DNA of 64,000 nt from Dehalococcoidia bacterium (lineage in GTDB: Bacteria; Chloroflexota; Dehalococcoidia; UBA2979). Positions 7,280 to 64,000 of this stretch are shown one piece after another. The position numbers and the translations under genes were made by a program. The stretch is from contig OZ244720.1 of assembly GCA_965219085.1 (NCBI GenBank), positions 3,104,001-3,168,000 of the forward strand, read 5' to 3'. The number at the start of each line of letters is the position of its first letter. The stretch's first letter is position 1. The notes under the pieces were generated by a model. That model made no database searches and was not told where the DNA came from. It saw only the letters and a program-made list of their open reading frames with translations.

Positions 7280-8100
7280 AAACCCAGAACTCCGTCTCGT
7301 ACCAGCAAATCGTCGGGAACTCGATGAGGTCGAGGCCGGTCTGCACCAGCCGCGGGTGGCAGACCAGCACGTCGACGCCCTCCTCGACCCGCTGCGCCAC
7401 CCATGCCTCGCGGCGCTCGGGAGGGACCGCGTCCGCCTTCATCACCGCGACCCTGAAGCCGTGGCGGCCGAGGAACTCCTCCATGCGCCCGGTGATGTCG
7501 CGCGTGCCCGTGTGGGTCGCGTAGACGAGCACCCGGCGGCCCGCCAGCCGCTCGGCGGCGACGAGGTCGACGAGCGCCTGCTCCTTCGGGTAGAGCTTTC
7601 CCTCCGGCAAGGGCGGGACCTGCACGAGCAGCTCCTCGCTCTCCGGGTCGAAGACCGTCTCGCCGCGCGTGCAGCCGTCCGGGTAGGCCAGGAGCGTCTG
7701 CAGGTAGGTCGCGGGCAGCCTCCGCGAGCCCTTCGAGAGCGCGTCCGCGAGCGCCGCCCGCAGCGTCTCGAAGAGCGTGTCGTAGCCGCTGCGCTGCGAG
7801 AGCTCCGTCGCGCCCGCCTCCGTGTCCATCGACGAGAGCAGCACGCGCTCCTCGTACGGCGGCAGCCCCGACGCGACGTCCGAGAGCCGCAGGAACACCG
7901 AGTTGCCGATCAGGTGGAAGAGCGCGGCGGGGGCGAGCCCCGGCCGCTCCCTGATCACCTTCCGGTACTTGCGGCGGCGGCTGGTGCGCCCGTCCTTCTC
8001 GGCGATGTCGTCGTCGCGGCCGATCGTGTGCTCGACGAAGCCGTAGCGCTCGATCCAGCGGCCCTCCTCGGAGCGCCCGAACTCCGTGCGGATCTCCGGG
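7280..8100 (-). pseudogene. SNF2-like helicase internal fragment (RecA2 domain)
   Basis: LYPKEQAL, RRVLVYATHTGTRD, LVQTGLDL (motif V-like); ends before motif VI; no N-terminus. Confidence 0.7.
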
Positions 8101-8205
8101 ACTCCAGTGCCTGCGCTCGTGTCGACGGCGGACGCCGCTCGCCTGGGCGCATCGGCGAGTCACCCCGGCGCGCGGGCCGAACAGCGAGGGCTCTCGGGCT
8201 CTAGC

Positions 8206-8662
8206 TGTAGTTCCCACGTAGGTTGTTGCAGGTGAGGGGCCCCGCCTGCTGCTGTGTGTGTAGCAAGCACCAGTAGCAGGGGAGGAGCCTCTCGTGGCAC
8301 ATCGTAACGCGCGTCTGACGCCGGTCACCCGGCTGGAGTTGGTTCGCGAGGTGGAGGCCGGCTGGTCCCAGGCGGAGGTCGCGCGGCGCTTCCGGGTCTC
8401 CCCTCCCGACCGTCGGGAAGTGGGTACGGCGCTTCCGCGAGGCGGGAGCGGACGGGCTCGACGATCGCAACTCGGCGCCGCAGCGTCACCCCCGGCGCAC
8501 CGCACCCGAGCTGGAGCGGCGCATCTGCGCCGTGCGCCGCAGCCAGGGGTTCGGGCCGCACCGCATCGCCTGGGCGCTCGGGCTCGCCCGCTCTACCGTC
8601 TACGCCGTGCTCAAGCGCTTCGGCCTCAATCGCCTCGACCAGCTGCATCGCGTGAGCAGGCG
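8206..8662 (+). mobile_element. IS481-family element, 5' remnant with frameshifted transposase N-terminus
   Basis: TGT terminus at 8206; MAHRNARLTP, HTH, then TVGKWVRRF and GPHRIA..LGLARSTV in a shifted frame; DDE core absent. Confidence 0.8.
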
Positions 8663-8664
8663 TG

Positions 8665-10430
8665 GGAATGACAACTCCATTTGGGAGCGCCAGGCGAACT
8701 GGTGCGTGGGCAGGAGGTGCAAGTCCTCTGCGGCGAAGGAGCAAGTCACTCCACGCCGCTCCGCGAGCCGTGCGCGGGTCATCGTGAGGTGGGTCGTGAA
8801 GCGTCGGTAGCGGGGTATGTGGGCGGAGCTATCGAGCATCGAAAGGGCAATCTGGAGCGCCGAGGCCCTCCATTTGGTCGAAGGCAACACCGGCGGCGGC
8901 GCTACGGGCGAGTCGTCGTCGGGCTCCACGGTGTCGAAGAACTCAGGCACGCATACACGTCCAGCACCGGGACCTGGGAAGGCTGCGCGCCGTCCCGGCG
9001 GGTCGTACGCCGGGACCGCATCGGGAAGGGAGGCAACCGAAGCCGATGATGGACGGAGCGCAGCAGTCTGACGCGGGCGTAGTAGCGAGGAAGGCGGCGA
9101 ACAAAGGGGCGCGAGTCCCGGCGGAGCCGCTGGACCGAAGGGCCGCGGCCGAGAGGAATCCGCGACGCACGGGCACGGTCCGGACGCAGAGCCGGGGAGC
9201 GGTGTCACCCGGGGCGGAGCGGATACGGCAGTTCGTAAAGGAGAAGCCGGGGGAGAGGCTCACCGCGCTCCTGCACCACATCACGCCGGAGGCGCTGCGG
9301 GAGGCGTACCTCGCGTTGAAGCGAGACGCGGCCCCGGGCGTGGACGGAGTGAGGTGGCGCGAGTCCGGGGACGGGCTGGACGAGCGGCTGCTCGACCTGC
9401 ACGGCCGCGTGCAGAGGGGAGCGTACCGGGCGAAACCCGTGAGGCGGGTCGAGATAGCCAAGCCTGACGGGGGCGTACGGCCGCTCGGTATCGCGTCGCT
9501 GGAGGACAAGATCGTCCAGCGAGCGGTGGTGGAGCAGATCCTGAATCCGATCTACGAGTCGGAGTTCTACGGCTTCAGCTACGGGTTCCGGCAGGGGCGT
9601 TCGGCGCACGACGCACTGGACGCGCTGGCCTACGCGGTGGACCGGCGCAAGGTCGGCTGGATCGTGGAGGTGGACATCCGCGAGTACTTCGAGCGCATCG
9701 ACCGGGAGCAGCTGATGGCGTTCCTGGAGATGCGGATCGGGGACCGGCGGGTGCTACGCCTGACCCGGAAGTGGCTGAACGCCGGCGTCATCGACGCGGG
9801 GCTTGCGGTCGACTTCGTGCGGGGGACGCCGCAGGGGGCGGTGATATCGCCGCTGCTGGCGAACGTCTACCTGCACCACGTGCTCGACCGCTGGTTTGCG
9901 CAACAGTGGCGACCGCGGGAGGTCTGGGGCGAGGCGTACATCGTGCGGTATGCCGATGACTTCGTCCTGGGGTTCCAGTACCGCAGTGATGCGGTGCGGT
10001 TCATGGAGGCGGTGCGGGAGCGGTTGGCAGCGTTCGGGCTGGAGTTGCACCCGGAGAAGACCCGTCTTGTGGAGTTCGGCAGGTTCGCGGAAGCGAACCG
10101 GCGGCAGCGCGGGGAGCGGCGACCGGATACGTTCGACTTCCTTGGGTTCACGCACTACTGCCGGACAACGCATGAGGGGCGGTTCGGACTGGGGCGCAAG
10201 CCCGTTGCGAAGCGGATGCGCCGCACGCTGCAGGCGGTCAAGGCCGAACTGCGGCGACGCATGCACGCGGACCCGGTGGTGACGGGGCGGTGACTTGGAC
10301 GGGTATTGCGTGGGTGGCTGGGCTACTACGCGGTGCCGACGAGCGCGCCGTCGCTGTCACGGTTCGTGCGGTTTCTGAGGCGGCTCTGGATGCGAGTCCT
10401 CCGCCGGAGTCACAGCGGGGCTACTTCCCG
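8665..10430 (+). mobile_element. Group II intron (class E-like), defective; domains V/VI not found
   Basis: Intron-like hairpinned 5' RNA (GGTGCAAGTCC, GCCGAG..CGAAGGC, GTAGTAGC..GAAG..GAACAAAG) followed by the RT ORF; 5' boundary uncertain (8660-8702). Confidence 0.8.
9046..10430 (+). pseudogene. ltrA: Group II intron reverse transcriptase/maturase with premature TGA (10291-10293) and 3' truncation
   Basis: AAPGVDG, RPLGI, DKIVQ, SYGFR, GTPQG, SPLLAN, RYADD, FDFLGF; domain X GWLGYYAVP continues in frame after the stop. Confidence 0.9.
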
Positions 10431-11770
10431 CTCCTCGGCGACCTCTCGCTGACGGAGATGCACCGGGTGCATATCGGGCGCCTCGCGCTCGGCGGCGAAT
10501 GCCACGTAGAAAGCGTCGACGGATGTGCCGAACGCAGCCTCGAAGCTTCGGCGCCAGTCTCCGGACGAGCCCAGGGACTGGAAGAACGTGATGAACGCCG
10601 AGCCACCGGTAGAGGATGCGTCGCCCTGAATCGCCGCTGCCTGTTCCTCCAGCGACTCCACAGCCAGCGCGCTGAGGCTGTCCGCGGACGGTCCGGCCCT
10701 ACGATACGGCGCCTCGCCTTCGAGTTGATCGAGGGGTGGAAGCGAGTTCGCCCGGACGTGTGCCCGCCGGTCCACACGCAGCTGCGCTGCGTTTGTCTCG
10801 CCTCGCGCCTGCTGGTCCAGGCCGCTCGCGTAGGCGGAGGCACCCTTCGACAGCCAGGCCGGGACGGCGTGATCGCCTGCCCACTGCCGCTGGAGCAGGT
10901 ATGAGTACTCGCGGATGAGCACAGGCCCGGTCGCGGCCTCCTCTACGACCGGGCGACCCAACACGATCTCGCTACGGGTGGTCGTGACGAGTCCGGAGAG
11001 TCGTGGATCGAGGACCACCGAGAACTCCGGTGGGAGGATCCCGTACTGTTCGGCATAGAGGCCAACACCGAGGCCGTAGCGCCCGGATCTCGGCCTGGTG
11101 CTCGTCTGGGACGTCGCCGGCAACTACGAACTGCGTGCGCGCAGTCCCTGACTGCCACCAGCGCGCGTCCGGGGACAACTCGACCCAGAGCGCGTCGCCC
11201 AGGTACAGCTCGCGCAGCGTGTTGGCGGAGTCCGTCCATCCCGGTCTGTATTGCTCGTACCGTTGCGTTCCCGCGTTCCACAGGGAGAGTCTGGTCAGCG
11301 CGTCCCCGAACCGGGCGACTGTCTCCTCGACCGGCATCCCCTCGCGGCCGGTCCAGCCGACGAGGCTCCGGCCCGCGTGCAGAGACAGCAACACGGGATC
11401 CTCGACCACCGGCCGCGTCCACTGCACTGTTGCCGTGCCGCCGATGTACATCCACACGCCCAGACCCGGCGTGAGCGGCGGGAGACGGCGGTTCGACGGA
11501 TTGTTGCGGGTTGCCCACCCGTATCGCTGATGCTCGCCAAGCCAGACGTAGACGCGCTCCAACTCCGGGACGGCCTCGAACAGCTCGGAGACGGGCGTCT
11601 CCGGTCCGAGCCACCCGAGCATGTTCCAGCCGGGCTGCAGCTCCGTCGTGACCACGTCGCCGCGAGGGCTCGTGACCGGATCCGCCCACGCGGGACGGGC
11701 ACTGGAGGTGAGCGCCACGCTGAGCACGAAGAGGACGAGGGCAGCGCGGAGCGTGTTGGCGAGACGCCTC
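10430..11770 (-). pseudogene. Secreted protein, frameshifted near 11075 and 3'-truncated
   Basis: Signal peptide, two LxxGxxxxGW repeats, then a gluzincin-like segment (REYSYL..PAWLSKGSA) in a second frame. Confidence 0.5.
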
Positions 11771-11934
11771 AATAGGGTCGTTCCCTCACGGCAAGCAGCT
11801 GCGCATCGCCTGGGAGCGCGGCACCTCGCCTGCACGGAGTATACGAACGAGCCTCGCCCCGCGGATTCGCGGCTGAGCGCGCGCCGCCCCCGACGTTCAG
11901 CGTCGGGGGCGGCCCTCGTCGGGCCTGGTCGGCG

Positions 11935-12663
11935 CTAGCCTTGAGCCCGCCGTCGCCTCCCAGTGACGGCCCTTGCCGCCAGCACCACCACGACCGCCGC
12001 GACCGCGACCGCGGCAAGAGCGCTCGCGCCGCTGTCACGTTCCGTGGCCAGGACGCCGTGGCCCGTCACCGGCTGCGCGGGTGCTGCGGCGCTCCCCGTC
12101 GTGCTCGCCATGAGTTGCCGCGGCTCCGTGCTCGTGAAGTCGATATCCCAGACGAACGCGCCATCCTCGATGCGGTCGGCGTTATGTTCGCCGATCTCGC
12201 CCGGCAGCTGGACACGCACACGCCCCCACGCGCCCGCGAGCAGTTCCGGTGGTGGCGGCGCCTCCGTGCCCGAGGGGTCGGCCGTTGGGGCCAGGACGGT
12301 GGCGAATCGCCATCCGCCCTCGCCGTCCGGCTGCAGTTCGAAGTCGGTCGCGAGGGCGTCGGACTCCGACGAACCCATCAGCAGCCCCAGCTGCTGGAGG
12401 TTTGCGAACGGCACCGCCATCTGGATGCCGGTGAAGCCATCTTCGCTGTACTCGCTGATTTCGGCCCCCGGCAGGCCGCCTTCGTCGAGATCGAGGGCCT
12501 GCTCGGTGGTGCTGCCGGTCATCGCCGTGAACTGGTCGCTGATGGCGACGAGCGCGCTCATCACGCCCGATCCGTCCGCGTTCACGGTGAACCCGAGCTC
12601 GTAGCGGATGCAGCCGACCATGGAGAAGGCTGTCACGGCCAGCAACAGGGTGAGCACTCGCAT
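11935..12663 (-). CDS. LppM-like lipoprotein with C-terminal membrane anchor
   Basis: Lipobox MVGC, TVNADGSG, LPGEIGEHNAD, hydrophobic tail followed by RRRR. Confidence 0.65.
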   Translation of the reverse strand: MRVLTLLLAVTAFSMVGCIRYELGFTVNADGSGVMSALVAISDQFTAMTGSTTEQALDLDEGGLPGAEISEYSEDGFTGIQMAVPFANLQQLGLLMGSSESDALATDFELQPDGEGGWRFATVLAPTADPSGTEAPPPPELLAGAWGRVRVQLPGEIGEHNADRIEDGAFVWDIDFTSTEPRQLMASTTGSAAAPAQPVTGHGVLATERDSGASALAAVAVAAVVVVLAARAVTGRRRRAQG

Positions 12664-53769: not shown

Positions 53770-55565
53770 TCGGGTTCCCCTGATTGGGAAGCAAATGGCG
53801 TCGGCAATCCCTGCGGCTGTTCGTCGACGGCCTCGATCCACTCGCCGGTTGCCCCGGTGAAGTCGCCGACGGTCGACGAAGCGAGCGCTCCGCTGATCCC
53901 GGAACGAATCGCGGCCGCGTCGAGACCCAGCAGGCGCAGCACCCACGCGGACATCTCCGTGCCGCCCTCGAGCTCCTCGCAGACGACCTGGGCGGCGCCC
54001 AGCGCCAAGAGCCCGTCGCGCTCGGCGACGTATCGGGTCCGGACGAGGATCGGCACGTTCGGCCACTCCGCGTGCGCCGTGGCGATCGCGCGGCGCGCGG
54101 CAGGTGGGTCGCTGATCAGCAACACGAGCACGCGTGCGTGGCCGAGGCGCGCGTGCGCAAGCGCCTCCGGACTGGTGACGTCGCCGTAGTACACGTGCGC
54201 GTACTCGCGGCGAGCCTCGCGCACGGTCTCGGCGTTGAGTTCGAGGATCACGTAGGGGATCTGCGCCTGCGCGAGCGTCCGGGCGAGCAGCCGCCCGGCC
54301 ACCCCATAGCCCGCAATCACCACGTGGTCCGTCAGGAACGCGTCCTGCGCGGTGGGCTCATCGATACCACGGGCGCGGAGCAACCGCTCCAGGGGCCGCA
54401 GCAGCGCCTCACCGGCGTGCAGCCCGCCGGTCCAGTGCATCAGCGCCCGCGACAGCACGATGCTCAGCACGCCGGTGGTGACGACGAGGCGGAGCTCGGA
54501 GGAGGTGATGAGGCCCTCGCTCGCGCCGAGCAGGAGCACCACGTAGCCGAACTCACCGAACTGTGCGAGGTACACGCCGGAGCGCCACGCGACGCTCGCC
54601 GGGTTGCGCATCGCCAGTGCCGCCAGCGAGGCGACAAAGGCCTTGCCGAGCACGAGGCCGGCCACGATCAGCACGGCGAGCACCGGCTCGTCGGTGAAGA
54701 CCCGCCAGTCCACGAGCATCCCGAGCGAGATGAAGAAGAAGCTTGTGAACGCGTCGCGCAGCGGGATGATGTCGCTCGTCGCGCGGTGGCTGTAGTCGGT
54801 GTCGGCGAGGAGGACGCCCGCGAGGAACGCGCCGAGGGCGAACGAGAGCCCGATCTGGTTCATGAGCCACGCCGAACCCAGGGCGATGGAAATCACGGTC
54901 AGCAGGAACACCTCGCGCGTGCGAGTGGTGTCCACGGCGTTGAACAGCCGCGGGACCAGGAACCGGGCCACGAAGAGCACAGCGCCAATCGCCAGCGTGG
55001 CGCGCGCCAGCGCCCACGCGACCTCGAACATGAAGCCGCTGCTGTCACCACTGGCGAGTACCGGCACGAGCAGCGTGAGCGGAACCACGAGCAGGTCCTG
55101 GAAGATCAATGCGCCCACGATGAACCGACCGTGTGGCGCATCGATCTCGCCTCGGACATCGAGCACGCGCAGCACCACGACCGTGCTCGACAGCGCCACG
55201 ACGAGCCCGAAGACGATCCCGCGCTCCACCGTGTCGCCCATCACCACGAGGATGGCGAGCGCGGCGAGGGTCGTCACGCCTACTTGCAGGGAGCCGCCGA
55301 TGGCGACTGCCCTCCAGATGAATCGCAGGCGCGAGAGCGAGAACTCGAGCCCGATGGCGAAGAGCAGCAGGATGACGCCGATCTCGGCGATCTGCGTGAT
55401 GTGCTCGGTGTCCCCGACGAGCCCGAGGCCGTGTGGTCCAGCCAGGGCGCCGGTGATGAGGAACCCGATGGTCGAGGGCAGGCCGAAGCGGTGCAGACCG
55501 ACGGTGGTCGCCACGGCTAGCGCGCCAATGACGGCCAGCTCGCCGAAGAGCTCTTGTTCCGCCAC
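53742..55565 (-). CDS. CPA2 cation:proton antiporter with TrkA-N domain (Kef-like)
   Basis: LLFAIGLE, LSSTVVV, FQD, QFGEF, GYGVAG. Confidence 0.9.
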   Translation of the reverse strand: MAEQELFGELAVIGALAVATTVGLHRFGLPSTIGFLITGALAGPHGLGLVGDTEHITQIAEIGVILLLFAIGLEFSLSRLRFIWRAVAIGGSLQVGVTTLAALAILVVMGDTVERGIVFGLVVALSSTVVVLRVLDVRGEIDAPHGRFIVGALIFQDLLVVPLTLLVPVLASGDSSGFMFEVAWALARATLAIGAVLFVARFLVPRLFNAVDTTRTREVFLLTVISIALGSAWLMNQIGLSFALGAFLAGVLLADTDYSHRATSDIIPLRDAFTSFFFISLGMLVDWRVFTDEPVLAVLIVAGLVLGKAFVASLAALAMRNPASVAWRSGVYLAQFGEFGYVVLLLGASEGLITSSELRLVVTTGVLSIVLSRALMHWTGGLHAGEALLRPLERLLRARGIDEPTAQDAFLTDHVVIAGYGVAGRLLARTLAQAQIPYVILELNAETVREARREYAHVYYGDVTSPEALAHARLGHARVLVLLISDPPAARRAIATAHAEWPNVPILVRTRYVAERDGLLALGAAQVVCEELEGGTEMSAWVLRLLGLDAAAIRSGISGALASSTVGDFTGATGEWIEAVDEQPQGLPTPFASQSGEPDQGKMPSAT

Positions 55566-55678
55566 GGCGCGCCCCCGGCCGATGAACCCCCGCTCGCGCA
55601 GGCCCCGTGCTGGTTGAGGTTACGTCTACCGGCGCGGCACGGTCAGCGCCGGCAGACGGCCGGCCGGGGCGCTCTCGC

Positions 55679-56821
55679 CTAGCCGCACCCCGATTCGTAG
55701 AGCGCGCGCTCGAGTGCGGCGACTTCGTCGTTGAGCCGGTGCTCGCGTGCGGGCAGCGCGATGCCCACGTCGCCCTCCGACAGCGCCTGGATGCGGGCGA
55801 GCTGGCTGCGAGCTGTGTCGGCGGCGTGGCGCAGCCGCGTGCAGTACTCGTCCCGGGCGGCCGGGTTGTCGGACGGCGCCTGGTACGCGATGACGTGATC
55901 GACCGGGATGTCCAGCCGGCGCTCCACCTGGTGCGCGGTGTCCATGCGGACCCAGCGCGACATCCCCGGCGGGAATGTGCACAGGATCACCGTGTCGTAC
56001 ACGTCCGGGTGCTCGTGCAGTTCATCCTCGATGGCGAGCAGCGGCGTCGGGTCGCCCACCTTTGCGGTGGCGAGTTCGATGCCGGCGTCGCGCAGCACGG
56101 CCCGCGTCTCGACAACCGCGGACTCCGCACTCGCCACGTCGTCGCTCGAGTCGCCGAGCAAGCCCGAGGAGTGCGTCGCGGGAATCAGCAGCGTGAACGT
56201 CGCACGCGTGTCGTTCATGGCGATGTCCGCGAGGTGGTCACGCAGCTCAATGCTGCGGGCGGTGTCGTGCGCAACGACCAGGTAGTGGGCGCCGGGCTGC
56301 ATCACGGAGCCCTGGTGGACGACGAAGACCGGGATGCGCGCGTGGCGAATCACCTCCTCGGCGACGCTGCCCTCGAGGACACGGCGCAGGCCGCGACGGC
56401 CGTGCGTGCCGATCGCGATCATGTCCGCGCCGTAGTCCGCGGCGGCGTCCAGGATCGCCTCCGGCACGTCCTCGGAACCCTCGACGGCGACGTTGAAGTC
56501 CCCGCTGAGATGCCGGTTGCCGAGCACCTGGAGCGACACTATCCGCTCGTTGCGGATGCGTTCGATCATCTGCGAGCGGTCCTCGTTGCGGTGCTGTCCT
56601 TCGTCGTAGTCCACGGGCGCACGGGCCCAGCTGTCGGAGGTCACGACCGGGTCGCCAACGACCAGGTCCTGGGGATGCTGTGGCGCCTCGGGGTGAGTGC
56701 GCTTCGAGTCCCACACCATCATCAGGCGCGCCTCGGCGCCCGCGGCGGATAGCCACGGGGCGAGCGCCTCGACGACCTCGTCGGCAAGTTCGCTGTCGTC
56801 CAGCGCAGCCAGCACACGCAT
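55679..56821 (-). CDS. Universal stress protein-domain protein
   Basis: GTHGRRG..GSVAEEV; second USP-like domain (SRWVRMD). Confidence 0.8.
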   Translation of the reverse strand: MRVLAALDDSELADEVVEALAPWLSAAGAEARLMMVWDSKRTHPEAPQHPQDLVVGDPVVTSDSWARAPVDYDEGQHRNEDRSQMIERIRNERIVSLQVLGNRHLSGDFNVAVEGSEDVPEAILDAAADYGADMIAIGTHGRRGLRRVLEGSVAEEVIRHARIPVFVVHQGSVMQPGAHYLVVAHDTARSIELRDHLADIAMNDTRATFTLLIPATHSSGLLGDSSDDVASAESAVVETRAVLRDAGIELATAKVGDPTPLLAIEDELHEHPDVYDTVILCTFPPGMSRWVRMDTAHQVERRLDIPVDHVIAYQAPSDNPAARDEYCTRLRHAADTARSQLARIQALSEGDVGIALPAREHRLNDEVAALERALYESGCG

Positions 56822-56837
56822 TGGTGGCTCCCCTCAT

Positions 56838-56887
56838 CTTCAGTCAGGCTTCCGGCCATCCGCTTCAGTCAGGCTTCCGGCCATCCG
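56838..56887. repeat. Perfect 25-bp tandem duplication
   Basis: CTTCAGTCAGGCTTCCGGCCATCCG x2. Confidence 0.9.
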
Positions 56888-57090
56888 CCGGTGGTTCCAT
56901 GGTACAGACTGCCCGCGTATCGAGGCAGATCCACATTCGCGATTGCTCCACCGTGGCCCGCGGAGCCGCTGCCGCCGTGAGGCATGCCGTCGCGCGCTCT
57001 CGGCCGGCTGCAACGGCTCTCGCTGTGCGGGGCTACGTCTCGGCGGGACCCGGCCGCAAGGATCACCTTCGCTGCGCCGATGTACCTCCC

Positions 57091-58266
57091 GTGACGCTCA
57101 CAGCCGCTGTGCTCATCGTTCTGGGCCTGCCCTCAGCACAGCCTGCGCTCGCGTGCGGTGGCTTCTTCTGTACGAACAGTCCCGTCGATCAGAACGCGGC
57201 GCATCATCTTCGCGCAGAACGACGATGGAACCGTGTCAGCGTACGTGCAGATCGAGTACACGGGCTCGGCGCCGGACTTCTCATGGATACTGCCGCTGCC
57301 CGAGGCCATCGGCGTCGAGGACGTCGAGGCGCCCGAGGCCGCCATGGCGGCCTTCCGGGAGCTCGAGATCGCCACCGTCCCGGTGTTCAGGCTGCCTCCC
57401 GAACCTGAGTGCGTACGATCGAGACTGATGATGACCACCACCTCATCCTTCAGCTCCGTGGATGTCGTGGCGAGCGGTGAGGTGGGGCCCTACGGATTCG
57501 ATGTGGTTCACTCGGACGATCCGGACGCCCTGGTCGGGTGGCTCCGCGAGTACAACTATCGCGTCACCGCGGAGATGGAGCCGCTCATCGACCTGTACGT
57601 AGACGACGGATTCGTACTCCTTGCCATGAAGTTGCGCCCCGGCCAGGGGGTTCAGGACGCGGCGCCGGTCAAGGTCACGTACCCCTCGAGTGCGCCGATG
57701 ATCCCGCTGCGCCTGACTGCCGTGGCGGCCAATCCAGACATGGCGGTCATGGTCTGGATCTATGCCGACGCACAGGCGACCCCGATCAACTACGACAGCA
57801 TGGAAATCCCGAGTGAAGATCTCGTCTTCTCCCCCTTCGGCGGGAGTGGGAACTATCGACAGCTGATGGCGGTGCGGCCGATGAGGATGGAGGCCAGGCT
57901 TTCATTACCGAGTACGCGGGACCGACGACCGACCTCGCAGTGACGCATCCCCTGCTCCGATCCCTGGGCGATCGCTTCAGCTGCGTGACGCGCCTCAACA
58001 CGGTGATCTCGCCCGAGGAGATGACCGTCGATCCGGTCTTCGGCTACGACCGCGACCTCGACGACGTATCCAACGTGCGCAACCTGGGAGAGATGCGAGG
58101 CGTGTACGGCTGCGAGGACCAGAGGTCCGGCAGGCTCGCGGAGCGCCCGGCGATGATCGCGGAGGCAGGCTTCTGGGGAGTTACGGTCGTCGCGGTGCTG
58201 CTGATCCTGGTGGCGGCGTCCGTGGTGTGGCGCCGCAGCGCCGCCCGGCGGCGCCGTGATTCCTGA
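57091..58266 (+). pseudogene. DUF2330-family membrane-anchored protein with two frameshifts
   Basis: ACGGFFC, FSWILP, MIPLRLTAVAA, TRLNT.ISPEEMTVDP, C-terminal TM across three ORFs. Confidence 0.75.
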
Positions 58267-58374
58267 GTCAGGTCGCCGCACGGATGGAGCGCCGCAACCG
58301 GCCGAACGAGCGCGGCGCAACGCCCCCTGCGTTGCCGTCGGCGCGACCGCGCCCGTACTATTGGTGACGGTCCG

Positions 58375-58449
58375 GCGGAAGTAGCTCAGTGGTAGAGCGC
58401 CTCCTTGCCAAGGAGGAGGTCGCGGGTTCGACCCCCGTCTTCCGCTCCA
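58375..58449 (+). tRNA. tRNA-Gly(GCC)
   Basis: GCGGAAG/CTTCCGC acceptor stem, CTCCT-TGCCAA-GGAG anticodon arm, GGTTCGA, CCA. Confidence 0.97.
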
Positions 58450-58523
58450 CTCCACCATCCCCCGAGTACGCGTCGACGCGCCCGCTTGAGGGCGGCGCGC
58501 GGTCGCGCGATGCTGTGAGCCGG

Positions 58524-58612
58524 GCCGAAGTGGCGGAATGGGTAGACGCGACGGTCTCAAACACCGTTGGGGTTAATGCCCCGTGTGGGTTCGAGTCCCA
58601 CCTTCGGCACCA
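58524..58612 (+). tRNA. tRNA-Leu(CAA)
   Basis: GCCGAAG/CTTCGGC acceptor stem, ACGGT-CTCAAAC-ACCGT, long variable arm, GGTTCGAG, CCA. Confidence 0.95.
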
Positions 58613-58672
58613 GTGTTCTCAACGGTTTCCCGGAATCGGGCCTCGGCGAATTGTACTCACCAGGGTGATCAG

Positions 58673-58694
58673 TTGTGGCCATCTTGTGGCCATC
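58673..58694. repeat. 11-bp tandem repeat, possible integrase arm-type sites
   Basis: TTGTGGCCATC x2, 60 nt after the tRNA-Leu 3' end. Confidence 0.55.
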
Positions 58695-58798
58695 GTTGGA
58701 TCGCACGGCGCGCGCGGCCGTGCGAACTGCGGGATCTCACCCGCGCGATCGGCTCCGCGGGGTCACGCTTCTGTCGGATCGCCGTCGCTTCTCGCGGC

Positions 58799-59788
58799 TC
58801 ATTCTCGGCCTTGCGAGACCCGCGCCCTGTAGGCACGCTGCTTCTCGGCATTCAGGCACTGTTTGCTGCAGAACCGGGTGTTCACTCGGACGGCTCGGAA
58901 CATCCTTTTGCAGGAGGCGCGCTCACAGAGTCGGAAGTCGTGCCCTGCCGCAAGGTCGTTAGCAGCCATGATGGCGAGGCCAGCGAGCGCAGAGGGCGCC
59001 GACCATCGAAGCGAGGCCCGTCTCCCGTCGCTGCTCGGCGACAAGGCCTGCCGAGCGGGGGCCTGGAGGTGATTGAGCGGCACGAAGGCCCGGACCTGCT
59101 CCTCGACCGACCGGCCCGACTCGATGCCCCACTTCGCCGAGTGGAGGGCCGTGCGGAACGCTAACGCCGCAGCCATGAAGTCAGGTACGCATTCGCGATA
59201 TGACGCACGAAACTCAGCCCTGCCGGGCTCGGGCCATTCCCTCTCGAGCATCACCGAGGCCTCAGGGTCCAGTGGTTTTTGTGAGACGCGGAGATGCGGA
59301 TCCCACTAATGTAGGTCGCGCCACAGGCGCGGGAAGAATCTCCACCACGTTTGCGTCATGGTCTCACGGCTCAGTCTGTCGTCCCACCCTATCGTCGAAT
59401 CGAGCTTGCGTAGCAAGACATGCGGCTTCGAACTAGAAGTCTGCGCGAGCCATCCGTCGCCGGCCCACCGATAGAGCGTCCCCTGCGGCAGCGTGACCTC
59501 AGCGGTACGTTGCAGGAGTACCCCCGTCGGTCCGTAGCGATCTGACCACTCGATGATACGCTTAGCTTCGAGGGCAGTGGGCGGCGTGAATTCGCTCTCA
59601 CGGTCGGGATCAGGGACGTCCGCGATGTCGACGTATGCCGGATTCCGCGTGCGGCTCTTCGCGCCGTCCGGGTCCTCCCTCCACAGGTCGAACCGCAAGG
59701 GGGCCTGTCCTTCGCTTACTGGCACCACATAGCCGTCACGGATCGTGTACTGATCGAACCGCCACCACGGGAAAGCGTGTAGATCCAT
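58799..59788 (-). pseudogene. CGNR zinc-finger-like protein split into two ORFs
   Basis: C-terminal CERASC..F..RFCSKQC..KQRAYR; upstream half in another frame. Confidence 0.6.
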
Positions 59789-59801
59789 ACGTTACCCTAT
59801 C

Positions 59802-59820
59802 GTTACTCTGTAAGAGTAAC
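59802..59820. promoter_or_regulatory. Palindrome in divergent promoter region
   Basis: GTTACTCT-GTA-AGAGTAAC. Confidence 0.55.
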
Positions 59821-59891
59821 GCAGGCGAGCCTACTCTGCAGGCGTAGCAGGCCTTCACCCGAGGGCCGCCGCAGTCCGAATCGAGAAGACA

Positions 59892-60305
59892 ATGTCGCTC
59901 ACCCCGGAGCCGAGTGACGCGAATGCCACCAGCATTCGTGTTGGCATCTACGTCGACGGCCCCAATCTCTACGGAGGCGCGCGGCGCCTCACTGGTGATG
60001 GCCGTCTCGAGATCCCTGCCCTGGTGCGGTCGATCGCGAGAGGCCGGGAGATTACGGACATGTGCTTCTGGACCGGGGTCCTGAACCAGGCTCAGGGACC
60101 AGAAGCCTACGCGAAGCAACGGCGCTTCTTTGCCAACATCGAACGCCGAGTTCCCAACGGGAGGATCGGGCGCGCTACGATTCGGGACCGCGGCACTCGA
60201 CAAGTAGAGAAGGGTGTCGATGTTGGGATCGCACTCGACCTCGTCATGGGCGCCTACGAGGATAGGTGGGATGTCGTCCAAGTCGCGATGTATCTGAGCA
60301 CTTGA
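59892..60305 (+). pseudogene. NYN/LabA (PIN-like) domain protein, C-terminally truncated
   Basis: IYVDGPNLY, EKGVDVGIALD; lacks the SGDxD motif. Confidence 0.75.
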
Positions 60306-60339
60306 CCTGGTGTATGACGAGGTTGCCCGATACCGCTAG

Positions 60340-61135
60340 GGATGGTCTGATCAGGTGGCGTGTCGGGCGCGGTGGGTATCGATCAGCGGGCCGAGCCGCG
60401 CTGTGGGGGCCCGATACCGCGGTCCATGGGTGGTCTCGCCTCCATGTCGCTCCGGAAGCGCTCCGGCGGGCGATTCGGGACGCACGGCTCCCGCGATCAC
60501 GCGAGCTGAGGCTCAGCTCGCAACAGGTTCGTGAAACCGAGCAGCAGCATGAGACGCTGGCGGTTCTTCTCAAGACCCCGGTAGCGCACCTGCGCGTACC
60601 CGAAGTGCCGCTTCACGTAGAGAAACGGATGCTCAGCCTTGGCGCGCACCGAGGCCTTGCGCCGCTCCGCCTGCGCCTCCTCGCCCCCCGGCGCCAGCTG
60701 CCGCCTGAGACCCGGGCGCAGCGCCACCTGCCAGCAGGTGGCGGAAGTTGAGGATCGTCGTCTCATCGGGGATCGGCTCGGAGAGGCTGAGACCGGCGAA
60801 CTCGAGCATCGAGCGGGAGTCGTAGAGTTCCTGCTCCATGCCGGGGTCGCTGAGGTTGAACCAGAGCTGCAGGCAGTGGATGCGCAGCATCACGCGCAGC
60901 GCGTAGGGGCGGCGTCCGCGGCCGCGCTTCGGGTAGACGGGCGCGATGCGCTGCTCCAGCTCAGCCCAGGGGACGAGCCTGTCCATGCGCTCGAGGAACG
61001 TCTGCCGCCTCGTCTTGACCTTCTTGTGCTCGTACTCGACGCTGCCGAACGAACGCTGCTGCATGGGGCGCCCCTCTCCGGGTCGCCCCATGATCGCATC
61101 TGCTCACCCGCTCAGGCGAGTTGTTCAGACCATCC
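60340..61135 (-). mobile_element. IS5-family element, copy 2, with 380-bp internal deletion
   Basis: Both TIRs (GGATGGTCTGA[T/A]CA), flanks CTAG/CTAA; near-identical to copy 1 outside the deletion. Confidence 0.9.
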
Positions 61136-61345
61136 CTAAACCTGAGCACGCAGCCTGGTAGAGTGCTGAAAGTTTCTGGCACCGAAGGCCGTAGTTGTCT
61201 GGTCCAGGGCGATCTGGCCACGCCCTATGGTTCGTCGATGGTTGTCCGCTGCCACGGCGGCCTCGCGCAGCACGAGCGCGGGCAACTCCGGGATCGCTAC
61301 AGCGACGGCTGACTCGGCGTGGATATCTAGCGACGAGCGCGCGTC

Positions 61346-61410
61346 TGTAGTCAGTGTCGACGTGCAGCGATTCTGTCAGTCCAACGGAGCAGCGACTTTG
61401 TCAGTACCGC
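61346..61410 (+). mobile_element. Orphan transposon-like end with periodic binding sites
   Basis: TGT start; GTCAGT at 61350, 61375 and 61400; GCAGCGA in the first two units. Confidence 0.55.
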
Positions 61411-61419
61411 GCTGGCCGC

Positions 61420-61804
61420 CGGAGGGTGCCGACCAGGACGCTCAGGCGGCGCTACTTCGCTCTCGCCGGACGGCTCACCCACTCGGCACGGCGCTGGACC
61501 CTGCACCTCCCGAAGCGCTGGCCCTCGGCCGGGCAGCTGGCAGCCGCGCTCGCGCGACTACGGGCGATACCACTCCCGGCCTGACGCGCTCACAGCGCCG
61601 GCCCGGGTCCGAGCCTCGCGCCAGCATGCCGCGCACGCCTCGCGCTCCCCAGCTCCCGCGCCCTCAGCGCCCCCGAGCTACGCTGAGCGACGGCTCATGG
61701 CTCCGGCCCGCCCCTGGCACCGCCCGGCGAACGCCGGCACGCCCGCCGAACTCTCCGGCAGCCCGGCACCCCGTCCCCTCAAGCTTCGATCGGTGGATCC
61801 GAGA
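61420..61804 (+). mobile_element. IS1380-family 3' remnant
   Basis: TLRRRYF.LAGRLTHSARRWTLHLPKRWP C-terminus; CGGTGGATCCGAG end-like motif. Confidence 0.7.
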
Positions 61805-61838
61805 TAAGGACGGTGCACTGTGACACCACCTTGCGCGA

Positions 61839-62320
61839 GTGCGCCCTGAAGTCGAAGGACGGTGCGGGATGACCTGAGTCGTCTGGAGGCATGCTCGTCG
61901 TCGCCAGCCGGTGCAAGTCCGGTCCGGGTAACTGCCAGGAGGCCCGGTAGCAGATCGGCGGCTCGGACCGGAAACGGTCCGGGTCGAAGCCCGATGTCGA
62001 AAGCCCTTGTAGGGGGAGCGACCACACGGTCCGCAGCATGAAGCGAAGCCTGCCGCGTCGTTAGGGTGCCCGCCGTAGCGCGGGGAAGAGGAGGAGCCGA
62101 GCCCAGTCCCTCGGGGTGAAGGCCATGGAAGGGGTGAAGCACCTGGAAGCAACCCCGAAGAACCTCCCGGCGTAGGGGGCGTGGAACGTGTGGAAGGTGG
62201 CGACGGGAACAGGGGAGGCCCTCCCCGGCCCGGCACGACTGCGGAGTGGTGCTGGAGCGGGGCGTCCTATAACCGGTGAGTAGCCGGGAAGTGGGCGGCC
62301 AGCCGGGAGGGAGTCGTACC
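61839..62320 (+). ncRNA. Group II intron 5' fragment (domain I to about domain II), no RT
   Basis: GTGCG start, CCGGTGCAAGTCCGG, GCCGAG..GAAGGC d3-like stem-loop, GGGAACAGGGGAGGCCC; breaks off after GGGAGTCG. Confidence 0.75.
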
Positions 62321-62516
62321 GCGCCAATCCCTTACCCGACCGTGACCCCGGACGGGGTACGACCTCGCAACGAGGCGGCACGACCGGCAGGTGGAACCTC
62401 TGGGTCTGACCGGGTAGCGTGCTACGGAGCTACGCCGACCTCCCCGAGCAGCCCCAGCACCTTCTGCCCACTCACAGCGCGAACCACCCTCTCACTCCGG
62501 GCCTGGATCCGTGCCC

Positions 62517-63882
62517 GGTCACGTCCCTGCAAGTGGTGTAGCAGTGCACCATCCTGATCATTTGCTAGCTGGCAGCTTGCAGCAGCACCTCCTCGCCTGA
62601 GGCGACCTCGGCCACGGCCGCCGGCAGCGACTGCAGCATCGTCATGTAGCGCCTCCCCTCCGCCCACTCGTCGTGCTGCTCGGCGAGCACGGCGCCGACC
62701 AGCCGCACGACCGCGGCGCGGTTGGGGAAGATGCCGACGACGTTGGTGCGCCGCCGGATCTCCTTGTTGAGGCGTTCCAGCGGGTTGTTCGACCAGACCT
62801 GCCGCCAGTGCTGGGACGGGAAGGCCGTGAACGCCAGGATCTCGGGTCCGGCGTCGGCGAGCAGCGCCGCGGCCTCGGGGAAGCGCTCGGCGAGCTGCTC
62901 CACCACACGGGCGTGCTGGGCCTGCACCTCGGCCGCAGAGGACTGCTCGTAGATCGTCCGCACCGTCGTCGCCACCAGCTTCTCGGCGCTCTTCGGCACC
63001 CGGGTGAGCAGGTTGCGCATGAAGTGCGTCCTGCAGCGCTGCCAGGAGGCGCCGGCGAAGACGGTCGCGATCGCGTCTCTGAGCCCCTGGTGGGCGTCCG
63101 AGGTCACCAGCTCGACCCCGGACAGACCGCGCGCCACGAGCCCGCGCAGGAAGCTCAGCCAGAACGCCCCGTCCTCGGAGGTACCGACGTCGATGCCCAG
63201 CAGCTCGCGCTTGCCTGTCGCGTTGACGGCGGTGGCGACGACCACGCTCACCTGGACGACGCGGCCCTCCTCGCGCACGAGCTGGGTGAGCGCGTCGAGC
63301 CAGAGGTAGCGGTAGGGGCCCGAGTCGAGCGGCCGCTCGAGGAAGCTCTCCACGACCTCGTCGAGCTCGGCGCAGATGCGCGAGACCTGGCTCTTCGAGA
63401 TGCCATCACAGCCGAGCGAGCGCACGAGGTCGTCGACGCGGCGCGTCGAGACGCCCTCGACGTAGGCCTGCGTGACCACGGAGAGGAGGGCGCGCTCCGA
63501 GCGCCGCCGCGGCTCGAGCAGCGAGGGGAAGTAGCTGCCCTCGCGCAGCTTCGGGATGCCCAGTTCGATCGTGCCCACGCGCGTGTCCCAGCGCCTGGGC
63601 CGGTAGCCGTTACGCCGGGTGAGGCGCGTCTCGCTGCGCTCGCCGTGGGCGGCGCCGATCTGCGCCGAGACCTCGGCGTCCATCACCGCCTGGGCGAGCA
63701 CCGCGACCGCCTCGCGCAGGAAGTCAATGTCAGCTCCGTCCGCCTGCTTGCGAAGCAACTCCAACAAGTCCACGCTCTCCTTGACCACCGTAGTCCTCCT
63801 TCACGTGACTGTTTCCTGTGTGAAGGATGGCGCGGTGGTCTCCTACGTCCACCTCTGTGACACCACTTCCTGGGACGCTACC
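62517..63882 (-). mobile_element. IS256-family element, complete
   Basis: TIRs GGTCACGTCCCTGCAAGTGGTGT / GGTAGCGTCCCAGGAAGTGGTGT; perfect 8-bp TSD CCGTGCCC at 62509-62516 and 63883-63890. Confidence 0.95.
62565..63788 (-). CDS. IS256-family transposase
   Basis: RNGYR, GVSTRRV, WLDA, SDAHQGL, WQRCRTH, NPLERLNKEIRRR. Confidence 0.95.
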   Translation of the reverse strand: MVKESVDLLELLRKQADGADIDFLREAVAVLAQAVMDAEVSAQIGAAHGERSETRLTRRNGYRPRRWDTRVGTIELGIPKLREGSYFPSLLEPRRRSERALLSVVTQAYVEGVSTRRVDDLVRSLGCDGISKSQVSRICAELDEVVESFLERPLDSGPYRYLWLDALTQLVREEGRVVQVSVVVATAVNATGKRELLGIDVGTSEDGAFWLSFLRGLVARGLSGVELVTSDAHQGLRDAIATVFAGASWQRCRTHFMRNLLTRVPKSAEKLVATTVRTIYEQSSAAEVQAQHARVVEQLAERFPEAAALLADAGPEILAFTAFPSQHWRQVWSNNPLERLNKEIRRRTNVVGIFPNRAAVVRLVGAVLAEQHDEWAEGRRYMTMLQSLPAAVAEVASGEEVLLQAAS

Positions 63883-64000
63883 CCGTGCCCCCGCCCGTGG
63901 TCCGGCGAGGGCAACTCGCGCGCGCTGTCCCGACTGCCAACGACGCCACGGCCGATCGGCCTGCGTCGCTACAGCCGCTCCCCGTGCGGACGCAAAGCCG

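Follow-up and report, generated by a model that had tools for sequence, protein, structure and literature searches.

A fossil group II intron inside the inverted repeat of an IS256-family element, and related introns at the same site

The stretch analysed here (the window) comprises 64,000 nt from the genome of a Dehalococcoidia bacterium (contig OZ244720.1, positions 3,104,001 to 3,168,000). Near its downstream end, a group II intron lies inside the terminal inverted repeat (TIR) of an insertion sequence (IS) of the IS256 family. The genome is a single contig of 3.3 Mb, and copies elsewhere in it are cited by their C1 coordinates. Exon-binding and intron-binding sites are abbreviated EBS and IBS, open reading frames ORFs, and a slash within a sequence marks the point of intron insertion, whether occupied or empty. 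The features at the locus are as follows.

61426..61802, + strand: 3′ end fragment of an IS1380-like element, 'IS-Y'; multi-copy matches stop at 61801-61812
61803..61838, + strand: 5′ exon, the inner 36 nt of the transposase-downstream inverted repeat (IRR) of an IS256-family element of 'IS256-B' type
61839..62340, + strand: group II intron, 502 nt, with no ORF, no domain V and an internal deletion of ~410 nt
61905..62041, + strand: domain I core, Rfam RF02003 group-II-D1D4-4 (104.1 bits, E 5e-23)
62062..62068, + strand: candidate EBS2, TAGGGTG, which varies among intron variants
62105..62113, + strand: EBS1 hairpin loop, AGTCCCTCG, with the core TCCCT at 62107-62111
62317..62340, + strand: retained intron 3′ end (last 24 nt, TACCGCGCCAATCCCTTACCCGAC, ending ...TTACCCGAC), matching the 3′ ends of two sister introns in this genome and of an intron in genome G031
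62341..62347, + strand: 3′ exon, the 7-nt tip of the split inverted repeat, CGTGACC, identical to the tip of the intact IS256-B copy and to the IRR tip of the neighbouring element
62517..63882, − strand: intact neighbouring IS256-family element, transposase 62565-63788 (PF00872, Mutator family, 448 bits)
62523/62524 (AGGGA/C, read on the − strand) and 63875/63876 (TGGGA/C): two empty target sites in the neighbouring element

The intron has the 5′ GUGYG (GTGCG at 61839) and the domain I fold of a group II ribozyme. Two introns of 911 nt elsewhere in the genome match it at 86% identity over 478 nt, and at its 3′ end the window intron differs from these copies at 2 positions in 27 nt. Between its 5′ part and its 3′ end ~410 nt have been lost, with a TCG microhomology at the deletion junction. 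No match to RF00029 (domain V) was found at E<=1 in window 55000-64000, the 24 nt retained at the 3′ end being below the usable length for any covariance model. Domains V and VI fall in the deleted region of the window copy, but are present in the two sister introns, in G031 and in the metagenome contigs L083 and L079. The window copy also contains no ORF for a reverse transcriptase (RT) or maturase. As it lacks both domain V and an ORF, the intron is dead, unable to splice or move. That the copy is a 5′ fragment only was ruled out by the TIR tip at 62341-62347, directly after the intron 3′ end. An earlier description of it as a dead 5′ fragment was therefore right about its death but not about its extent, since both junctions are kept and the deletion is internal.

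The 5′ exon (61803-61838) is similar to both ends of the neighbouring IS256 element, and matches the end of a diverged IS256 copy at C1:891716-891751 at 34/36 positions (E 8e-8). The diverged copy continues uninterrupted as ...CACCACCTTGCGGGA/CGTGACC (GCGGGA/CGTGACC) before unrelated DNA begins. IBS1, the last five exon bases (−5 to −1), is CGCGA in the window and CGGGA in this intact copy, which is 84% identical to the neighbouring element over 994 nt. The neighbouring element has 8 further copies in the genome. Its TIRs (GGTCACGTCCC... and GGTAGCGTCCC...) and the 8-bp target duplication that brackets it (CCGTGCCC at 62509-62516 and 63883-63890) are those of an IS256-family element, for which a duplication of 8-9 bp is usual. 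The copies and the duplication together fix its ends exactly, which gives GGTCACG and GGTAGCG as its tips and places the intron site 7 nt in from the tip. The two ends, read outward, are ...CAGGGA/CGTGACC and ...CTGGGA/CGCTACC. Since both carry the same sequence, each IS offers two intron sites. In the window, the intron thus separates positions 7 and 8 of an IS256-family inverted repeat. A first-pass annotation of this DNA, made from the sequence alone, had placed the intron start, the IS256-type 5′ flank, the 7-nt distance and the loop sequence AGTCCCTCG as described here, and all four stand.

The IS256 remnant that holds the intron has no transposase. Its remainder was removed by IS-Y, whose end lies at ~61802 and whose fragment matches PF13701 (DDE_Tnp_1_4) at 26 bits, under the cut-off of that model. 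With its host IS truncated in this way, the intron copy in the window is a fossil. By our own count, 19 IS256 ends in the window genome are empty and 1 is occupied.

To relate the loop at 62105-62113 to exon sequences, relatives of the intron were sought in 99 genomes of the same family, and 6 of the 99, including the window genome, contained one. A flank-blind pattern scan of the species genomes covered 40 stretches and gave 51 matches, 45 of them with a readable loop. In the relatives the loop is 9 nt long, follows GAGCCC and has the form x-G-NNNNN-C-x, and its five variable bases track the last five bases of the exon. Seven classes were distinguished, listed here as EBS1, exon end and target.

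TCCCT: (N)GGGA; IS256 TIR
GCCGT: ACGGT; IS110-family end (the two sister copies in the window genome)
GGGAT: ATCCC or GTCCT; IS5-like TIR
ACCCT: CGGGT; target without identification
GTGGT: ACCGC; RT ORF of another intron, and other sites
CAATT: GGTTG; 44-46 nt inside the end of an unidentified element
GGAAT: CTTCC; IS256 transposase ORF

Across 34 distinct junctions in these classes, cognate EBS1–exon pairing averaged 4.35/5, compared to 1.79 for non-cognate combinations, and only 2 of 20000 class-level permutations attained the observed pairing sum. The RNAalifold consensus places the 62105-62113 segment in a terminal hairpin loop. From the covariation across classes and this placement we conclude that the loop is EBS1, as the first-pass annotation had proposed, with its core at 62107-62111. 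The window EBS1 pairs at 5/5 positions with the neighbouring IRR (AGGGA), and at 4/5 both with the other end of the neighbouring element and with the intact IS256-B end. A segment following CCGCG(Y)CGT also varies with the target and is able to pair with the ACACCAC region, making it a candidate EBS2. In the window, this candidate can pair with a candidate IBS2, CACCTT (−12 to −7), by 6 bp including one G-U.

Introns with the same EBS1 occupy the same point of IS256 ends in other genomes. Genome G031 represents another genus of the family, and in it an intron with EBS1 TCCCT follows the 5′ exon ...GGTCGCCTACCTCCACCCGCCTCTTACACCACGTCCCGGGA/ (ending ...ACACCACGTCCCGGGA/) and is itself followed by CCCTACT. 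It occupies the transposase-upstream end (IRL) of an IS256 element, with the transposase start on the opposite strand. An empty copy of this IS end in the same genome reads ...GGGA/CTCTACT before the sequences diverge, which puts the site 7 nt from the tip.

Metagenomes were scanned with the EBS1 hairpin alone as the pattern, and 16 contigs were returned. A 5′ junction was present in 13 of these, and 12 of the 13 exons end in GGGA/ within TIR-like sequence (8 distinct exon sequences). The 3′ exons include CGCTACT (L076), CTTGACC (L084) and CAACC (L083 and L079, whose flanks then diverge). Remains of a Mutator-family transposase lie upstream, in sense orientation, in L077 and L075 (65% and 54% identity to the window transposase), and L070 has upstream remains that match PF00872 at 69 bits. 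Transposase fragments only were found in L071, L085, L072 and L074, with L085 at 20 bits, slightly below the cut-off. No transposase was found upstream of the intron in L080 and L078, and in L082, L079 and L083 the upstream sequence was too short for this test. The occupied end is the IRR in the window, L077, L075, L071, L070 and L085, and the IRL in G031. Homing of this intron lineage to IS256 ends, with a TIR ending in GGGA/ as 5′ exon and the tip of the repeat as 3′ exon, had been predicted from the window alone. Introns of the same EBS1 bear this out in G031 and at 12/13 metagenome junctions, as do their 3′ exons (CCCTACT, CGCTACT, CTTGACC and CAACC, beside CGTGACC in the window).

Two of the metagenome contigs, L083 and L079, carry full-length introns of 2035 nt that match both RF02003 and RF00029. 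Each encodes an intron-encoded protein (IEP) in a 455-codon open frame with RVT_1 (129 bits) and GIIM (50 bits) domains, and no HNH endonuclease domain was found in it. At L013 393-2150, in G031, the IEP of the IS256-TIR intron is interrupted by an insertion that encodes a protein of 585 aa, by eye resembling large serine recombinases.

The sister introns in the window genome (L002 and L003; G000:C1:1972909-1973819 and 1859038-1859948) have a different target. They are identical, ORF-less introns of 911 nt with domain V/VI matches, and their IEP is reduced to its first codons. Both interrupt an IS110-family element 15-17 nt from its end (...CTTCTATGAGGGACGGT/CTTTC...); this element is itself nested in an IS5/IS1182-like one, and at least 8 empty copies of their target site are present in the genome. 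As these same-genome relatives, 86% identical to the window intron, target an IS110-family end, target specificity belongs to the EBS1 variant and not to the whole clade. All three intron copies in this genome are ORF-less, so the family appears extinct or dormant there. Another species of the genus carries a 99.6% identical, ORF-less 911-nt intron (L018, G015:C4, 5′ end at locus 1232) at a site (...GATGAATGAGCGGC/) that differs from that of the sister pair and pairs 5/5 with its EBS1. An ORF-less intron thus seems to have been mobilised in trans recently.

Further classes are found at other places in mobile elements. In G022, introns with EBS1 GGGAT (L014 and L016) follow ...GTTGTTCAGAGCATCCC/ and ...TCTGTTCAGAGCGTCCT/, sites that resemble the end of an IS5-like element in the window (gagttgttcagaccatccc/ta, 61119-61138), ~2 nt from its tip; domain V and the 3′ ends of the G022 introns were not found within the 4.2 kb examined. 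The G032 intron lies inside an IS256 transposase ORF. In G111, which has at least 45 intron copies (L026-L065), an EBS1-GTGGT intron lies in the RT ORF (...FESIP...) of an EBS1-CAATT intron, and the latter is in turn inserted in a repeated element of unidentified type, 44-46 nt from its end (CTAGTGTCC...). This nested pair recurs with a fixed spacing of 1116 nt at at least 8 places.

We consider it very likely that an endonuclease-less group II intron retrohomed via EBS1 into an IS256 inverted repeat at GGGA/C, and that the window copy is a later fossil of such an event. The intron would reverse-splice between positions 7 and 8 from the IS256 tip (...GGGA/C...), with the EBS1 loop UCCCU pairing with the conserved GGGA of the repeat and the A, C or U before it. 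A G beside EBS1 may pair with the C at +1, and a second loop, the candidate EBS2, would pair further inward, near the ACACCAC motif. Introns with EBS1 TCCCT use this site in diverged IS256-family elements of several genomes and metagenomes, and the window copy later lost ~410 internal nt, domain V included.

Several observations weigh against this account. The occupied window site itself pairs with EBS1 at 3/5 positions only (4/6 on the first-pass count), which we attribute to decay because 2 of the 36 exon bases differ from the intact copy, and most natural TCCCT sites pair at 4/5, not 5/5. The G preceding the EBS1 core, which could pair with the +1 C, was assigned by eye, as was EBS2, whose register varies (−12 to −7, −15 to −11 and −17 to −13). 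One metagenome intron of the same EBS1 (L081) has an unrelated 5′ flank (2/5 pairs) and divergent first 55 nt, and the flanks of L082, L079, L083, L080 and L078 were assigned to IS256 by TIR similarity alone. The metagenome sample was chosen on EBS1, and is thus uninformative on the frequency of relatives with another EBS1; in the flank-blind scan of species genomes, 1 of the 45 readable-loop junctions was of the TCCCT/IS256-TIR type. Finally, a cognate IEP was not found in the window genome, where tblastn with the L083 IEP gave one RT at 33% identity, and 19 IS256 ends of this genome are unoccupied.

Could the introns have travelled with the IS rather than into it? A single entry into an IS256 end, followed by transposition and divergence of an IS-plus-intron composite, is the alternative that survives best. 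Composites can multiply in this clade, as the nested introns of G111 show by recurring as a fixed unit with their 1116-nt spacing, 44-46 nt inside the element end. We nevertheless regard it as improbable for the IS256 introns, and favour intron mobility because the introns occupy either end of the IS (the IRR in the window, the IRL in G031), because introns with near-identical IEPs lie in diverged TIRs, because the hosts have diverged more than the introns, and because most IS256 ends and copies are empty. The L083 and L079 IEPs differ at few residues, yet their introns sit in diverged TIRs with different outer flanks. The introns are 80-86% identical in DNA, compared to 54-65% identity in protein for the host transposases. 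A TIR split 7 nt from its tip is, moreover, unlikely to be a substrate for the transposase.

A one-off ectopic retrotransposition, with the intron landing in an IS256 end by chance and the resemblance of loop and TIR a coincidence, would agree with the 3/5 pairing of the occupied site and with the IS110-family target of the closest relatives in the same genome. We judge it very unlikely, as introns that share this EBS1 fill the same position in G031 and at 12 of 13 metagenome junctions, and EBS1 covaries with the exon across the clade. Despite the dense IS nesting in the region, the idea that an IS256-type element transposed beside a pre-existing intron can practically be dismissed, since the 7-nt TIR tip is found beyond the intron, at 62341-62347, an IS is unable to split its own end on insertion, and uninterrupted copies read GGGA/CGTGACC.

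By analogy with other endonuclease-less introns, retrohoming by this lineage would probably take place at replication forks. Cumulative GC skew in the window genome is noisy, with a minimum at ~1.38 Mb and a maximum at ~3.12 Mb. Relative to it, all 3 intron copies (a small sample, in which one sister copy is part of a duplicated composite) are opposed to the expected co-directional orientation.

To place the TCCCT introns within the clade, a domain I tree was built from 20 distinct rows with a midpoint root, after dropping G022c, L071 and L072 for a short or deleted domain I. TCCCT introns fall on both sides of the root. One half also contains the retargeted classes, and the window and G031 copies branch, unresolved, at its base. 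An ancestral state of IS256-TIR homing in the clade would fit this topology, but we treat the tree as a lead only, because the metagenome rows were chosen on EBS1 and the root is arbitrary. A broader proposal is accordingly tentative, and in our view somewhat more doubtful than not. The IS256 TIR (a G/TCCC core, 5-7 nt from the tip) may be the ancestral main niche of an endonuclease-less intron clade in Dehalococcoidia-type and soil bacteria, from which switches in EBS1 repeatedly retargeted offshoots to other IS termini, such as the IS5-like TIR 2 nt from the tip and the IS110-family end 15-17 nt in. The introns would then be hyperparasites that permanently disarm IS copies.

What would such an insertion do to the IS? 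The site is near enough to the tip to split the IS end physically, and the 7-nt tip ends up 0.5-2 kb away from the rest of the repeat, which would include the transposase-binding part. IS256-family elements are described as transposing via circles in which the two ends are abutted (PMC3299598), and a loss of IS mobility is predicted on this basis. Splicing would be unable to repair insertions into the TIR, because a DNA end is split and not an ORF. Two questions follow: whether insertion abolishes IS mobility, making the intron one parasite that neutralises another, and whether drift of EBS1 moves one intron clade among the ends of unrelated IS families. For annotation, these insertions account for orphan IS256 end fragments beside pieces of intron in the repeat-rich genomes of uncultured bacteria.

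The window and its genome contain other mobile elements and genes. A second, different group II intron lies at window 8650-10400, with RF02005 group-II-D1D4-6 at 8720-8943 (161 bits). Its RT frame (9169-10374), the one hit of the tblastn search, shares 33% identity with the L083 IEP, and a search of 8000-12000 for domain V gave no match at E<=0.1. The frame upstream of this intron resembles, by eye, the helix-turn-helix N-terminus of an IS transposase. The IS5-like element at 60336-61138 (DUF772 N-terminal domain, 69 bits) has an internal deletion, its halves (60336-60735 and 60731-61138) being ~376 nt apart in other genomic copies, and it interrupts an ORF that starts at 59892. At several places elsewhere in the genome (G000:C1, e.g. 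1936775-1938290), an IS110-family element has inserted into IS-Y, always at the point that corresponds to window 61483, and into an IS5/IS1182-like element, 'IS-X', likewise at a single position, a case of site-specific IS nesting. Two tRNA genes, at 58375-58446 (73 bits) and 58524-58609 (60 bits), are directly upstream of the IS-rich stretch.

The first-pass annotation knew of no description of this strategy, but a precedent exists. In the published accounts, every one of the seven RmInt2 copies of S. meliloti GR4 is located in an inverted repeat of ISRm17 (PMC4615759, PMC5894124), an ISNCY-family element (PMC10194956), and RmInt2 retrohomes into these repeats in plasmid assays with a lagging-strand bias (PMC4615759). 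As the authors note, the repeats make twice as many sites available (PMC4615759, PMC5894124). The window lineage is therefore a new example and not a new principle, as homing to IS inverted repeats is already documented for RmInt2. As there, the natural copies of an endonuclease-less intron occupy one or the other inverted repeat (left or right) of a multicopy IS, its target is read by EBS–IBS pairing, and each IS has two sites on opposite strands. RmInt2 belongs to ORF class D, with the C-terminal motif LX3AX3PXLF[V/A]HW (PMC4615759); inspection by eye did not reveal this motif at the C-terminus of the L083 IEP. The targets here are IS256 elements in another phylum, as opposed to ISRm17 (ISNCY) in an alphaproteobacterial host; the named host records of the clade are metagenome-assembled genomes of Dehalococcoidia. 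Mobility has been shown experimentally for RmInt2, whereas the window lineage is known from sequence. In the titles, abstracts and passages of the literature searched, no description of IS256 inverted repeats as intron targets was found. The window lineage would thus add to RmInt2 an independent second case, apparently widespread, of homing to IS inverted repeats by group II introns, differing from the precedent in intron group (not class D by the quoted motif), IS family and phylum.

Targeting of IS by bacterial group II introns is, as far as the consulted text describes it, widely used, usually at fixed positions inside transposase genes (PMC3522654): RmInt1 enters ISRm2011-2 and E.c.I4 enters IS3-like transposases (PMC3522654, PMC5894124). 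The window lineage shares with these the use of a multicopy IS as a safe and abundant homing site, and its relative in G032 also lies in a transposase ORF. At the coding sites of RmInt1 and E.c.I4, however, splicing can restore the mRNA and the IS ends remain intact, whereas the site of the window lineage is non-coding and its occupation interrupts the DNA end at which the transposase has to cut. Class C (IIC) introns are short ribozymes that have an IBS1 of 3-4 nt and recognise stem-loops; the window lineage, in contrast, combines a large domain I with a 5-nt EBS1 and a candidate EBS2. IIC introns target terminators and integron attC sites (PMC7923331). The window lineage resembles them in that its target is a repeated, structured, non-coding DNA motif of another element. 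IS4321 and IS5075, of the IS110 family, insert into Tn21-type inverted repeats. They too are mobile elements that target the terminal repeat of another element, but they do so by a DNA transposase mechanism, whereas the window lineage would use RNA-guided reverse splicing.

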